Positions 18,001-27,000 of a DNA stretch of 64,000 nt are shown here, piece after piece. Source of the stretch: Fibrobacterota bacterium (GTDB lineage Bacteria > Fibrobacterota > Fibrobacteria > UBA11236); the NCBI GenBank assembly GCA_043753995.1, contig JAYUVP010000249.1, positions 32,001-96,000 on the forward strand, read 5' to 3'. Within the stretch, counting starts at the first letter, position 1. Each line of letters starts with the position of its first letter. The position numbers were made by a program.

Positions 18001-21000
18001 CGATGCGCTTGCGTGGGCGGGAGATCCGCTCCAGACACTTGCAGGGGACGTCACTCCAACCATACGGGTGCGCACGCGCCGTGATCAGCCTGGCTTTTGC
18101 TCTGAGGTCGGAGCCCTAGCCGTCGCCAATACCACCGGCGACGGTTTGCCTGAATTGATGGAAGCCCTGGAGACGATTTTGTTTGCGCCCGCCAAGGTTG
18201 TCAGATTAAAAGCTCCCGATGGGCAAGCAGGGGAAGGGGCCGACGAGGTTTTCCTCACCACGGAGCGTCAGCGAGAGGCCTTGGAAAAGGCCGCCGCGAA
18301 TTTGCGCGCGGCATTGAATCAGCTCGATGGCCAACCCGCCATTGAAATTCTCGCCTTCGAAGCGCGCGAGGCCGTGCAGGCACTGCGCGAATTGCTGGGC
18401 GAGGTGAGCGCTGACGATGTGCTCAATCGCTTGTTCTCAGGGTTTTGCATCGGGAAATAGTCCGATCGCAGTAGACCCAAACATATGGGCGAGGGAAAAT
18501 TCCGCGCTGGGTTCCGGGCCCTAATGGGTTGAAGCTGGCGTCGAAGTGCGTCCCGCTTGGGCTCGCTTCAATTGTCGCAGCATATAGTGCAAGGATTCCG
18601 AGGAATAGCCGTGCAGCAGCAATCGGAAACCTGCGCGTAAAGTGGAAAGCGGCAACATGGGGTGGCGATTGTTCACTCGCCACAAACGCGAATCGTCGTC
18701 TAGCAAAGTCGAGACATATATTCCAATTGTTTCGTCGAGTTGCAGGGAATTCGAAGCCCGCCAAAAGTCATTGTCGGAAAGTAGGAACTGGAAAATCGGA
18801 GTATAAATCTCGATGGCGGTTTCGACGTCCATGAAATTATGCCAGGAGTCGGGCAATTCTTCGAATTCGAAAGGCCCGTCGGTAATGGCTTGCAAGTTTA
18901 TCGTCGTGACGGCATGCAAAACCTTGCCTTCTTTCTGCAAGGTTTGATTCAGGCGAATGATGAAATTGAAGAGATTGATATCATGAAACAGGAAAAGGTG
19001 GTCTTTCACATCGGCCAGTCGCTTGGGCTTGAGTGGGTTGAGTGGAATATCGACCCCGCTATTGTCTCGAATGAATTCGAGAATTTCGGAACCAATGTGG
19101 AAATGCCTCATGATCAGCAAATTCGCTTCGCGGCTGGCAAAATACCGGAGTCCCAAATAAATGAGGTGATGCAAAAGCCGTGACGACTTGAAAGCAGAAG
19201 GAAAGGGTGTTTTCAGCACCATAATTAGGCAAATCAAGGTGCGCATGATGGGCCGGAGCAGGGGCAAAAGGAATTGCCGAGTCTTGGATTGCAGCCCAAA
19301 CAGCAAGGCGCCCTTCACTTCGGGATCTATGGGCGTAGAATTGTCGAGAAACAAAGCTTGGGTAGGCAGCGGATCTTCCGGATCATGCTTCAGCCCGTTG
19401 AAATAACTTTGATACCGGGTATGGCGCGTATTTTCAGTCATTAGTAATTGCCTATTTCTTCGAGTTGCAACCGGTAGAGGCGTGCCGTGGTTTTGGCTGC
19501 TTTTACGATTTCATCGGCAAGCATTGGGGTCAAGGGTAAAAGTTTCATCGCCGTATGCATTTCTTCGAGGTGATGCTCGTCATTGTGACCGTGATAGAGA
19601 AGAAAGGACACCGCATCGGAACTCAGTTGAAGGGCCCTTTGGATTTTCTCGCCCCAAGCCTTGGCCAGGTTTTTTCCAAGTCCTTCGATGATAAAAACCG
19701 AGCCTAGCATGTGAAAAGGATTTTCCCTTCCGGCCTGGTGAAACATATAAGCGGAAAAGGCCTCGGATCCAATATTCTTGGGATGGGAAAGTATGTCCCC
19801 GCGTTCGCCCCCGGAGGCGACATAGTTGGCTTCGAGCATGCGGAAATCGCGGTGCTCATCCCAGGAATGCTTGAGATAGAGAGAGCGCAATTCAAAATGC
19901 TCCGTGGTGATATTCGAGGCCGCTTTGGAAATCCAGCGACTGCCCTCCATGACTTGCTGGCGCAGGTTGAGAAGCAATTCCCTGTAGTCGGATCGGGTTA
20001 AGTTTCCGGTCTCGATTTTGTGGATGAGGGATAACTTGCTTAGTCCCAATTCGAAATCCGACCACACCAGGAAGAGGCGACGGAAAAGGGAGGCCAGTAA
20101 ATCCTCGCCCGGCTGAAGCGGGATGTCGCTCGGAGTGGCGGATATTTCTTGTTGCGCCGGTAACAATGATTTTTTTTCCGTTGGCGATTCGCCGACTACG
20201 GTCAATAGCATAAAACTGGTGATAAAGCGACCGCTCTCGGGGACTTGGCAAAGGATTTTCTGCCCGGATTGAAGCCGTCCCGATTGCCATAGTTCTTCGA
20301 GCATGATCAACAGGGAGGCCGCGCCTGTATTGCCCTTGTGATATAGGTTGGTGAACCACTTATGCGCAGGAATGTCGGCCAGGCATTTCTGCAATAGGTC
20401 GACGATTTGATCCTTGAAGACATGCGAGGAATAGTGACAAAGAAACCAGTCGAAATCGGGTTTGAGCTTGCCCTCTTCGATAAGCGAGAGATAATGCGAC
20501 ACACCCAAGGGGACGATTTTGTCGAGCATGGCGAGATCTTGTCTTAGGGTAAACAGACCTTGCCGAACGGCGTCACCATAATTCGCCATTTCTCCCGTGG
20601 TAACCCGTATGCTTCCGTCTTCGGATTTTTCACCGCCGGCATACATGCAAACATCCAGGCTATCGGCATGTGATTTCAAGTCTATCCACTCGATACGGAG
20701 GGATAGGCCACTTTCCTTGGGCCGGTCTTGCAGAAGCGCGGCGCCCGCACCATCCGACAACATCCAGCGTAAAAATTCGGTGTCGAGCGGTATGCGCTTC
20801 TCATTCTGAAAGCTGTCTAGTTCTTCGAGTATCGGGGCCCGGAATTGACGGCTGGGAAATTCGCTGCCGCAAACCATGCCGGTCTTGTGCTTGCCGCAGG
20901 CAATGGCGTGATAGGCCCCTTGAAGCGCGGACATGACGCTCGCGCAAACACCTTGAAAAGAGGCGACATCGCAGCAGGCGATCTTGGCTTCGCCTTGCAC

Positions 21001-24000: not shown

Positions 24001-27000
24001 TTGCATCACCTTGATTTCAATAGCAGGCATACGGGTCAATCTTGATGACGCGAAAAAAGGAGGGAAACATTATTCGAGCCGAAACCGAAAGAATTCTTGA
24101 GGATGTTTCGCAATGGCGCATGTTGATTCGCCGATTCAGTCGCTGTCATACCTTCCTGAAGGTGAAAGGCTTGCGGCAATTGCTGCTTCATCAAGGCTTG
24201 GACGCATAGAATGGATTCGAGGATACCACAAGCCCCAAGACTATGTCCGATTTGGTTTTTTGGAGCCACCACGAGCTTGCCGCCGAGTTCCTTGCCAAAT
24301 ACCGAATGCATGCCGAGATATTCGACTTCATCATTCTTCAGGGTACCGGTGCCATGCGCGCAAATGGCATCGATATCTTTGGCCTCTATTCCGGCGCAAG
24401 CTAAGGCTTTGTGCATGACGGCAATAATATCGCTCGCATCGGGCTTCGGTGCGACTGGATGATATGCACCTGAATTCTGTGCCACGCCGGAAAGCTTTGC
24501 CAAGATCGGTGCGCCACGCCTGCGCGCCGACTCTGGTGATTCAAGTATAAGGAAGCCAGCTCCCTCGGCGAGTATAAAGCCGTCGCGCTCCGGGTGAAAG
24601 GAGCGTCCCGGCTGCAGGGGATCGCGTTGGGCGCTGAGCACTTTCAATTGCTTATAAGCATGATAATTGAAGGGTGAAAGCGGGGCTTCTGCGCCGCCCA
24701 CCAAAGCGATGTCCCATTGCCCAGTAGCGATTTTCCAAAAGCCTTCAGCAAGGGCATTTGCGCTTGAGGAGCAGGCCGTAGAGATGCAGAGGTTCGGACC
24801 GGTAATGCCGGTTTGTTGGGCTATCCATGACCCCAGGGCACTGGGCATCACCTTGGGGACGGTGAAGGGATGTATCGCGCGCATGCCTTCTTGCAAGGCT
24901 TTGGCGATCATTTCTTCATGAAAGTCCAGACCACCGAGACCACTGCCCAGGCAAATGCCGATGCGATAGTCGGAAGTGTCGCCGGACAAGCCCGCTTGAT
25001 CCAAAGCCTCGCGGGCAGCGATGATACCTAAGTGTACGCAGCGAGCAGAGCGAGCGAGAATTTCGGGTGGTAGTCGCTTGGCGACATCGATATGGACCTT
25101 GCCAACCAAAACCGGATCGATAGCAAAACCGTCCTGAAATGAGAATTGGGCTTTGCCGGAAGACATTTCATCCCAAAAAGCATCTACTCCGCAGGCGCGG
25201 CCGACGAGCGCACCCAAGCCGGTGATGACAGGAAAGGTTACCATCAACAACCCCTCAAATCATTGCTCTTGCTCGGGCATATCGAATAAAAAACCGATCT
25301 GAAAAAACATCTCTAAGTTGGCTGACGCCCCACGCCTAACAAACGAGTTATTGTTCGATCCCATGGGAATAAAAATCTCGATAGCATTTCCGGCGGCCAT
25401 CTTAAAGTGACCCGCCTGAAAATGGAATTTGCCCCCTGGTGCAATGAGGGCGTCCTCGGATTTGAAGGAACCATAGTAGTCGCGCTCACGATAATACCGA
25501 TATCCGAATTCGATTTCAGGAGTAAAGCCCCAGCGGTAGCCCTGCCAAACGCTATAGCCAAAATAGATGGACGGGCTAAGGTATTTGCTTGTCTTCGACT
25601 GGGTCTGAATTTGAATCAAATTGATAATTCCCGGCTTTAAACCGAATTCAAAGCGATCCACATGTCTTTCCAAAAAAAGTTCGATGGGAAAAATGCCAAC
25701 CGTGCCTCCGCTATAGCTACGGTCAACCTGGGATTCTCCAGCGGAGGACAAAATGAAACCGACTTGATTATCATAGGCGCTTGCTCCAGAGTGAAACAAG
25801 GGCAAGGTGCTGAGCAGGAATAAAAACCGCGGTAGGAACATGGGGTGCAAAGTAATATTCCCAATCATGAGCCAGCCTTCGTCATCCCATGATTCTTGTC
25901 GCCAAAAGCCGGGTCTTTTCAAACCCATTGTCAATCATTCGCGCTGTGAAGGCAAAAGCGATTGCGTGGTGGTCTGTCCGGTGAATGTTTTCGAAGTGCG
26001 CCGCATCGAAGATTCTGATTTCGCGGCACTAGGCATACTGGCCAAGGTCAAAGTCATGGTCCATGGCAGAAAAACGGCCTATACGCCCCGCGCCGAGGCT
26101 TGCGAAGCCTGCGGCCTATGCGTCACGGCTTGTCCGGAAAAGGCGATTCGCCTGATGAAGGTTTAAGCGGTTTTAATTCGGCGGGGTTCCCCATTTGAAC
26201 CAGGCATTCAAGGTGGCCAGTTCGGTGGGAGTGAGTTGCACACCCGAAGCGGGCATATATCCTGCGGATAGGAATGGACGATTGATGCGATCGTAAACCT
26301 TGCTTCGCGTCAAGGAGTCGGCGACAGTCGTGGAATCGCAAACCGCGGTGGCGTTCACCTTCCCGGGCCCGTGGCATGTCAGGCAGTAGGTGTTTAGAAC
26401 GGTGGAAACGCCGGAGTTAAAAGGCGGCAAAACCGTATTGCGAGCCAAGGCATGAATAGGCCCGTCCGTGGCGGTGGCCGTGATGGTTGTCGTGCCGGTG
26501 ATCATTTTCAAGACTTGAACTTGGGTGGAGCTCACCACTTTCAAAACCGCAGGATTGCTGCTGGTCAAGGCATAGGTCTTGAGCGTGGTGGAATCTGGCG
26601 CGAAAACCGCTGTGCTTTGCACCGTCGTTCCCACCACGAGCCGTGGCAGGGTTAGGGCGATTCCCGTAGCCACCACATTCCCCACGGTTACATTGAAATT
26701 CGCTGTTTTCGCCCCGTCGGTCGAAGTCACGCGCCATACCGAATTCCCCGCCGCTGTTCCCGATAATTGAGTTGTTCCTACCAGAGTGGCACCTGTACCT
26801 GACACCAAGGAAAGGGTATAGCCCTTATTTGTCGCCGATGACGGCGTCCAGGATAAAGTTGGCGCCTTGGTACTGCCAACAAAAAGGCTGAGGTTAGCCG
26901 CGCTCACGCTCTGCACCGGGACCGGGCCCACGACCACGGTGAAGGTGTCCTTGACCGTGGGATTTTGCACCGAAGTCGCGACAATCTTCACCGAGCCCAA

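Follow-up and report, generated by a model that had tools for sequence, protein, structure and literature searches.

A StlD/DarB-type ketosynthase fused to a heme-oxygenase-like domain forms, with DUF6999, a conserved module predicted to make an oxidised ring lipid

The window analysed here is a stretch of 64,000 nucleotides from the genome of a Fibrobacterota bacterium. Eight co-directional ORFs occupy its minus strand from position 18521 to about 25841, with gaps of at most 14 nt or overlaps of 1–4 nt, and all eight were found where an earlier survey of the genome had placed them (Table 1). One of them encodes a ketosynthase (KS) of the StlD/DarB type joined to a heme-oxygenase-like oxidase (HDO) domain; its uninterrupted frame bears out the 625-residue fusion described in the survey. 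The same fusion and gene order recur in many genomes, so that the layout cannot be attributed to chance. Promoter, terminator and repeat scans around the locus gave nothing usable. No RNA data set was listed for it, and the DNA contig compared, which may come from the source sample itself, spans only positions 16500–21970.

Table 1. Genes and domains of the locus, in positions of the 64-kb window.
Feature	Position	Strand	Details
DUF6999 protein	18521..19441	-	306 aa; Pfam PF22523, 372 bits; core partner
KS::HDO fusion	19441..21318	-	625 aa, single open frame
Ketosynthase domain of the fusion, StlD/DarB-like	20194..21318	-	residues 1-375; phmmer, VIA and conservation
HDO domain of the fusion	19441..20103	-	residues ~406-625; VIA and profile alignment to 3DDE
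Membrane fatty-acid desaturase	21333..22265	-	310 aa; PF00487; three His boxes; accessory
Sterol-desaturase/FA-hydroxylase family protein 1	22269..23033	-	254 aa; PF04116; His boxes; accessory
Sterol-desaturase/FA-hydroxylase family protein 2	23030..23800	-	256 aa; PF04116; His boxes; accessory
Acyl carrier protein	23797..24039	-	80 aa; PF00550; DSL motif
FabF-like elongating ketosynthase	24036..25250	-	404 aa; TIGR03150, 305 bits; Cys-His-His kept
Exported protein without assigned family	25260..~25841	-	~193 aa; no Pfam/NCBIfam match
2x[4Fe-4S] ferredoxin, divergently oriented	25867..26166	+	Fer4 families

The KS domain has a KAS III fold that is nearest to StlD, with which it shares about 40% identity (5gk0; phmmer E 2e-81). 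Structural comparison with VIA gave a Z of 53.7 and an rmsd of 1.5 over 370 residues for StlD, against Z values of 37.6 for OleA and 33.7 for MxnB. The Cys-His-Asn triad is complete: C125, H295 and N330 are invariant in the conservation alignment, position 153 is E or D, and the StlD-type segments FLRWMLSDGAGA and PESGRF are present. The profile scores of the survey were reproduced, at 387.9 bits for NF005293 (cut-off 450), 348.4 for NF053539 (cut-off 550) and 59–77 for the FabH models; both curated cut-offs for the StlD/DarB family are thus missed. The domain also departs at many positions from the KSs that are partnered by the aromatase DarA, for example with F103 for H and G254 for S. In KS trees, 11 DarA-partnered proteobacterial enzymes form a well-supported branch and the module KS falls outside it. 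One DarA-partnered Streptomyces KS likewise lies off the main DarA branch, and tree position therefore does not fix the chemistry of these enzymes. Fused and split KS/HDO forms are interspersed on the tree, as would be expected of proteins that catalyse consecutive steps. The first tree was built by a quick method and the second with FastTree only; a motif filter left 13–15 intended rows out of the first tree and the conservation alignment, and the FastTree tree added 13.

The HDO domain follows a disordered linker (residues 380–402, pLDDT < 50). It had been limited in the survey to about residues 520–615; a PF14518 match does lie at 522–615, but the fold covers about residues 406–625. This region adopts the seven-helix fold of the HDO superfamily, as indicated by VIA matches to 3dde (Z 26.4, rmsd 2.0) and CtCADD (8va9; Z 24.3, rmsd 1.8) and by a profile alignment to 3DDE (E 2.9e-13). 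The predicted metal ligands are E458, E488, D491, E545, H576, D580 and H583, and the invariant H484 is a candidate further ligand. Across 350 sequences, E488, E545, H576, D580 and H583 are invariant save for gaps. In the alignment, D491 faces the His of the E-A-G-H motif of 3DDE, where MboA has E-F-G-H, and an Asp occupies this position in 345 of the 350 sequences. The canonical 3His/3carboxylate (or 3H/4C) motif is therefore absent from the aligned domain. The metal site appears, from sequence, to be retained as a 2His/4–5carboxylate set with E-x-x-D and a conserved acid at 458. Resemblance to UndA, proposed in the survey, thus holds for the fold and fails for the predicted ligands. Relative to UndA, CADD, SznF, MboA and 3DDE, the domain keeps the seven-helix fold and the Glu, Glu and H-x3-D-x2-H positions, but differs in having E-x-x-D for E-x-x-H, the extra acid and a joined ketosynthase. 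The predicted set is absent from those in a 2026 review, which gives 3H/3C, 3H/4C and mononuclear sites (PMC13108848).

The DUF6999 protein belongs to a family of at least 3000 members. Its AlphaFold model is all-α (pLDDT 91.8) with one hydrophobic helix at residues 57–75. Among 34 diverse representatives H113, H153, D154, D205 and D236 are invariant and H277 and E282 nearly so, which suggests a metal or catalytic site; the H...HD...D spacing is one that we take to resemble an HD motif. Foldseek found no match at E ≤ 1e-3 and a PDB profile search none. The best VIA Z against known structures was 4.3, HD-domain and ferritin-like dimetal folds included, and the best Atlas score, 0.87, came with low recognition and no useful match. 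Fruitless searches of this kind do not prove that the fold is new. Profile comparison with DarA revealed no similarity (hhalign probability 0.2%).

Homology searches again returned 517 proteins related to the fusion (E ≤ 1e-10), and 117 of the best 120 carry both PF08541 and PF14518, as the survey had reported. The eight-gene block was not upheld as a conserved unit: what is conserved is KS, HDO and DUF6999, the first two, fused or separate, adjoining DUF6999 in all 108 loci with room for it. Fusion itself is not essential: of 25 metagenome loci whose length allowed a decision, 19 have KS and HDO separate. Many Variovorax strains carry the module, a Nostoc plasmid bears a broken KS-HDO-DUF6999 copy, and the Caulobacter vibrioides control gave matches both for DUF6999 and for a StlD/DarB gene that scores below the cut-off. 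Most genomes tested are related Burkholderiales and the counts are therefore not independent. The module is real and widespread.

Its distribution was compared with that of DarA. Because DarA has no Pfam or NCBIfam match, a profile was built from the neighbours of 11 StlD/DarB genes, recognised by the gene order darA-darB-darD-darE(BtrH) against an Azoarcus table and by a weak flavodoxin-type match. NF053538 was discarded as a DarA model, as it belongs to another family, and a Streptomyces gene beside a DarB-like KS, considered as a DUF6999 candidate, proved to be DarA-like. The StlD/DarB genes of 401 Pseudomonadota genomes fall into two sets: 11 lie next to a DarA-type gene, in genomes that have no DUF6999, while the remaining seven all lie beside HDO and DUF6999; the 11 KSs score above the NF005293 cut-off and the seven below it. 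The DarA profile matched none of 15 module genomes (both controls matched), and no DarA lies next to the module in 121 loci. The survey's observation that the block lacks DarA is thereby extended: module and DarA were not found together in the genomes and loci searched. A ring-joining KS paired with an oxidase and DUF6999 instead of its usual partner is likely to produce its lipid along a route not yet described.

The closest known systems are DarAB(C), StlCD and BrtCD, which make dialkylresorcinols, stilbenes and bartolosides. They have the same type of KAS III enzyme, with Cys-His-Asn and a Glu after the second strand, in likewise small fatty-acid-derived clusters where an ACP is optional and desaturases are accessory, as in the putative microcarbonin cluster described in part of PMC6836626. 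The module differs in lacking DarA at the locus and in the 15 genomes, in its sub-cut-off KS on other branches, and in its constant partners, HDO (often fused to the KS) and DUF6999. DarB homologues that lack an aromatase and whose products are unknown figure in passages of Martins et al. (2019; PMC6836626) and PMC10088813. The module resembles these clusters, for which the same passages name no HDO or DUF6999 partner. The listianol system is a different one: the relevant part of PMC13192835 describes a canonical DarA/DarB pair. A search of the open literature, judged from the entries listed, found no paper on the KS/HDO/DUF6999 module, on DUF6999 or on a Caulobacter module, nor any on an HDO-ketosynthase fusion, in agreement with the survey.

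The survey had predicted an oxidatively tailored ring lipid. Its basis stands: the catalytic set of the KS is intact, the fused domain has an HDO fold, and both lie within a lipid cluster. An oxidised ring lipid is still the likeliest predicted product. We tentatively favour, with confidence just short of even, a DarA-independent pathway in which the HDO domain replaces DarA. By analogy with its family, the KS would condense a 3-oxoacyl with a 2-enoyl thioester head to head, giving a 2,5-dialkyl-carboxy-cyclohexanedione. The attached HDO domain, with a carboxylate-rich dimetal site and O2, would then oxidise the ring to a dialkylresorcinol, most simply by oxidative decarboxylation resembling that of UndA, an HDO that converts a fatty acid to an alkene and CO2 (PMC13108848). 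The HDO would do the work of DarA because the ring alkene formed is the keto tautomer of 2,5-dialkylresorcinol. Carboxy-cyclohexanediones are DarA substrates whose decarboxylation accompanies aromatisation, according to a section of PMC6836626. In the least certain step the obligatory DUF6999, probably a metalloprotein of undescribed fold, might oxidise or release the product, or re-reduce the HDO. This pathway is consistent with the proximity of the KS to StlD in sequence and fold, the near-invariance of the HDO ligand positions, the division of the 401 genomes between DarA and HDO+DUF6999, and the constancy of the three partners. Against it, the KS lies below both cut-offs and outside the DarA branch, and the HDO ligand set is unlike that of UndA. 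Moreover, an aromatase role alone leaves the constant need for two extra proteins unexplained.

That the module and DarA do not overlap can be explained just as well by DUF6999 being the aromatase. With these roles swapped, DUF6999 would aromatise the same ring and the HDO would oxidise it further, by ring hydroxylation to an alkyl-hydroxyquinone or by desaturation of a chain, which MboA carries as far as an alkyne. A 2-His carboxylate-rich site is reminiscent of hydrocarbon-oxidising diiron enzymes. DUF6999 is tied to the KS as tightly as the HDO is, and it has invariant His/Asp residues and a hydrophobic helix; desaturation chemistry is also documented among HDOs (PMC13108848). However, DUF6999 does not resemble DarA, and the KS is fused to the HDO in hundreds of proteins, which points to direct hand-over, whereas a DUF6999-HDO fusion was seen only in P0016 among the best 120 of the 517 homologues. 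We consider the exchange of roles unlikely. Quite unlikely, in our estimate, is another head-to-head KS product, an α-pyrone (like that of MxnB) or an open α-branched β-keto acid (like that of OleA), which the HDO would decarboxylate or desaturate to a ketone, enone or pyrone lipid. The separate KS branches and sub-cut-off scores agree with such a product, as do the lack of DarA in the 15 genomes and the caution, in the passages of PMC6836626, that DarB enzymes lacking a DarA might form something other than carboxy-cyclohexanediones; but the fold is far nearer StlD than OleA or MxnB, the StlD-type segments are shared, and the Streptomyces enzyme off the main branch does have a DarA. That the HDO is no longer an oxidase and only binds or channels lipid, leaving a plain cyclohexanedione, is improbable: the fold has metal-free members (PMC13108848) and the E-x-x-H histidine is replaced, but the replacing Asp is itself a possible ligand, almost fixed, and five of the other positions are invariant apart from gaps.

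The module names constant partners for a large group of DarA-less DarB enzymes and offers a three-gene hypothesis testable in culturable organisms such as Caulobacter vibrioides and Variovorax. It also adds an HDO subtype whose predicted ligands fall outside the published list, and DUF6999 as a large family without a solved fold. Taken further, the DarA-independent pathway would be a second, O2-dependent route to bacterial lipids of the dialkylresorcinol type or of a more oxidised, quinone type, with the HDO and its new 2His/carboxylate-rich site as an oxidative decarboxylase-aromatase and DUF6999 as a metalloenzyme of undescribed fold. This full claim is possible but rather doubtful; if true, it would account for many of the orphan DarB clusters without DarA, among them one indicated in C. 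vibrioides.

A FabF/ACP pair private to this locus would supply the chains, and three membrane diiron enzymes encoded here would desaturate or hydroxylate them. Desaturases are optional to the module: a homologue adjoins it in all 76 Burkholderiales-type loci and in none of 20 metagenome loci with room. The two FA_hydroxylase-family proteins are 38% identical to each other, and protein 2 is closer (37–47%) to the single copy in Achromobacter and Variovorax clusters. Both had been called CER1-like in the survey. CER1 carries an additional C-terminal domain; the term is too specific for these short, sterol-desaturase-type proteins, in which PF04116 is the sole domain. In tblastn searches of 121 related loci, neither the ACP (a short query that may be missed), the FabF-like KS, the exported protein nor the ferredoxin had a match, the first three being encountered at this locus alone. 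The exported protein is probably a small outer-membrane β-barrel; Atlas links it to OMP β-barrel clusters at 0.96, as a lead only, and its membership of the pathway is doubtful. The ferredoxin gene has a GC3 of 0.58, similar to the cluster, and its product is a possible electron donor.

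The survey's finding had the eight minus-strand open reading frames of the block correctly placed, co-directional and closely packed, and the family scores claimed for their products were obtained again on re-scanning. The reported union of a ketosynthase (KS) and a heme-oxygenase-like (HDO) domain in one protein also held, as the 625 residues form a single open frame and both folds were matched structurally. In the AlphaFold model (pLDDT 93.6, pTM 0.92), residues 2-375 superimpose on StlD (Z 53.7, rmsd 1.5) and residues 406-625 on the heme-oxygenase-like protein 3DDE (Z 26.4, rmsd 2.0) and on CtCADD (Z 24.3, rmsd 1.8); the linker 380-402 is disordered. 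The His boxes are intact in all three membrane enzymes of the block.

KS, HDO and DUF6999 constitute a real and widespread module. Searching with the HDO gave 80 named genome loci, almost all of them from Achromobacter, Bordetella, Variovorax and relatives. DUF6999 was present in all 80, and the hydroxylase-desaturase-[KS::HDO]-DUF6999 order of the window recurred in the 77 with room for it, one being frameshifted. The DUF6999 query yielded 32 metagenome loci, with KS and HDO fused in 6 and split in 19, the other 7 being too short. Of 121 loci examined, in sets that were each chosen through their query gene and contain many related loci, 108 extend 2.1 kb or more upstream of DUF6999, and all 108 contain both KS and HDO. 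Where 4 kb was available, desaturase and hydroxylase were present in 76/76, 0/20 and 4-5/8 loci of the three sets; none of the 121 loci gave a match to ACP, FabF, g03231, ferredoxin or DarA. HDO-domain relatives among shorter proteins numbered 1456, some of them fragments, and those of DUF6999 at least 3000, with source names including Acidobacteriota, Bacillota and Bacteroidota. Searches of an open-access library listed no paper on the module. In one protein (P0016) the KS C-terminus, HDO and DUF6999 form a single chain which, being known from a single contig, may be an assembly error over a gene overlap. The Aas-like fusion beside three modules (Table) possibly supplies acyl-ACP or acts as an exporter.

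Among 401 Pseudomonadota genomes centred on one module carrier, 18 held a StlD/DarB-like gene, 11 of them above the NF005293 cut-off (450 bits). All 11 had a gene of ~305 aa upstream, then a small gene and one of BtrH type. The upstream genes were taken as DarA-type because this order equals darA-darB-darD-darE in the excerpted Azoarcus gene table (PMC3949708). DUF6999 was absent from all 11 genomes; the 7 genomes with genes below the cut-off are the 7 DUF6999 genomes of the sample, all with HDO. A profile built from the 11 DarA-type proteins matched both control genomes and none of 15 module genomes, including the Fibrobacterota genome (97% complete). The module is not a DarAB/StlCD member, since no DarA was found and its KS scores are sub-cut-off, although it probably works in a similar way. 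Excerpts of two reviews leave open the products of DarA-less DarB enzymes. The plasmid genes L132 and L139 (Table), with no DUF6999 or HDO match and no annotated DarA nearby, represent another kind of DarA-less locus.

We tentatively favour, at somewhat below even chances, a DarA-free scheme in which the KS product would be oxidised by HDO to a resorcinol. UndA converts a fatty acid to an alkene and CO2, according to an excerpt of a 2026 HDO review (PMC13108848); the same type of reaction on the ring acid would give a cyclohexenedione, a tautomer of resorcinol. HDO would suit this aromatase-replacing role because it is fused to KS in genomes without DarA.

A scheme in which DUF6999 is instead the aromatase, with HDO contributing a further oxidation, is less likely, though not decisively so. 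H113, H153, D205 and D236 are conserved in all 34 diverse DUF6999 representatives (full-length rows chosen from 150 listed, plus the query), D154 in 33, H277 in 32 and E282 in 30. The all-alpha model (pLDDT 91.8) had no match among solved structures by structure and profile comparisons, and DUF6999, which the survey suggested could take DarA's place, is unrelated to DarA on profile comparison.

A KS product other than the assumed ring acid appears unlikely. Across 12 DarA-type and 31 module enzymes there is no variation at C125, H295, N330, S188, D189, Q260 or E361, while position 153 is E or D. The counterpart of E153 in StlD has a catalytic role, on which our literature search found no paper. 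In unrooted trees (a quick method and FastTree), the 11 DarA-partnered KSs group with two lone Bacteroidota enzymes in a single branch (support 100); module KSs fall on several branches, all outside it, as does a Streptomyces DarA-partnered KS. Fused and split forms require three changes each.

The predicted metal-ligand positions of the HDO domain, left unchecked by the survey, are near-invariant, but the canonical E-x-x-H is lacking. In 350 distinct sequences, H576, D580 and H583 are found in all, E545 in 349, H484 and E488 in 346 and D491 in 345, and position 458 is E (269) or D (75); exceptions are gaps in nearly all cases. The single His row presumably is the same genome's other HDO (L082), a stand-alone protein with canonical E-x-x-H (E 1e-20 against 3DDE). 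D491 falls on the His of 3DDE E-A-G-H, and both MboA and L082 have E-x-x-H there. The fusion domain shares the superfamily fold but not its canonical motif, and the alignment predicts a 2His, carboxylate-rich site. H484 could be a ligand, an assignment weakened because 3DDE and L082 have that His besides the canonical one. That the HDO domain is non-catalytic seems, beside these conserved positions, quite improbable. Excerpts of the 2026 review list 3H/3C, 3H/4C and mononuclear ligand sets, and the word 'fusion' is absent from its text (PMC13108848).

The block follows mnmE, the cluster ending 60 nt beyond it. It is probably an insertion, because five family relatives carry other genes there and its GC3 is lower (0.54-0.61 vs 0.68-0.70 in flanking genes). 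Among 31 family relatives, the hydroxylase was found in none (one query) and DUF6999 in one, as a divergent split copy without desaturases; the block looks horizontally acquired.

Table. Positions of features in the window and in compared loci
Sequence	Position	Strand	Feature
Window	11011-13035	+	674 aa; N-terminal region presumably resembling DUF4157/eCIS-core proteins
Window	14029-18460		rpmH-rnpA-yidD-yidC-mnmE operon (first gene taken to be rpmH)
Window	26173-29388	-	~1000-aa exported protein; Big_2 Ig-like repeats, three CXXCH heme motifs
L082 (G000:C85)	2273-2893		second HDO
L106	10846-14262		MFS-acyltransferase-AMP-ligase (Aas-like) fusion, co-directional with module; by Pfam
L112	4555-8073		same; by Pfam
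L136	2697-6098		same; by N-terminus only
L129 (Nostoc flagelliforme plasmid pNFSY08)	6134-10713		KS-HDO-DUF6999 copy in pieces, unannotated in PLSDB; cytochrome P450 upstream
L131 (Streptomyces plasmid)	7709-16147		ACP, DarB-like KS, DarA-like gene, FAD monooxygenase, FabF, P450, ACP, FabG
L132, L139 (Bacteroides and Prevotella plasmids)	4989-6131, 4995-6131		lone DarB-type genes after transcription regulator
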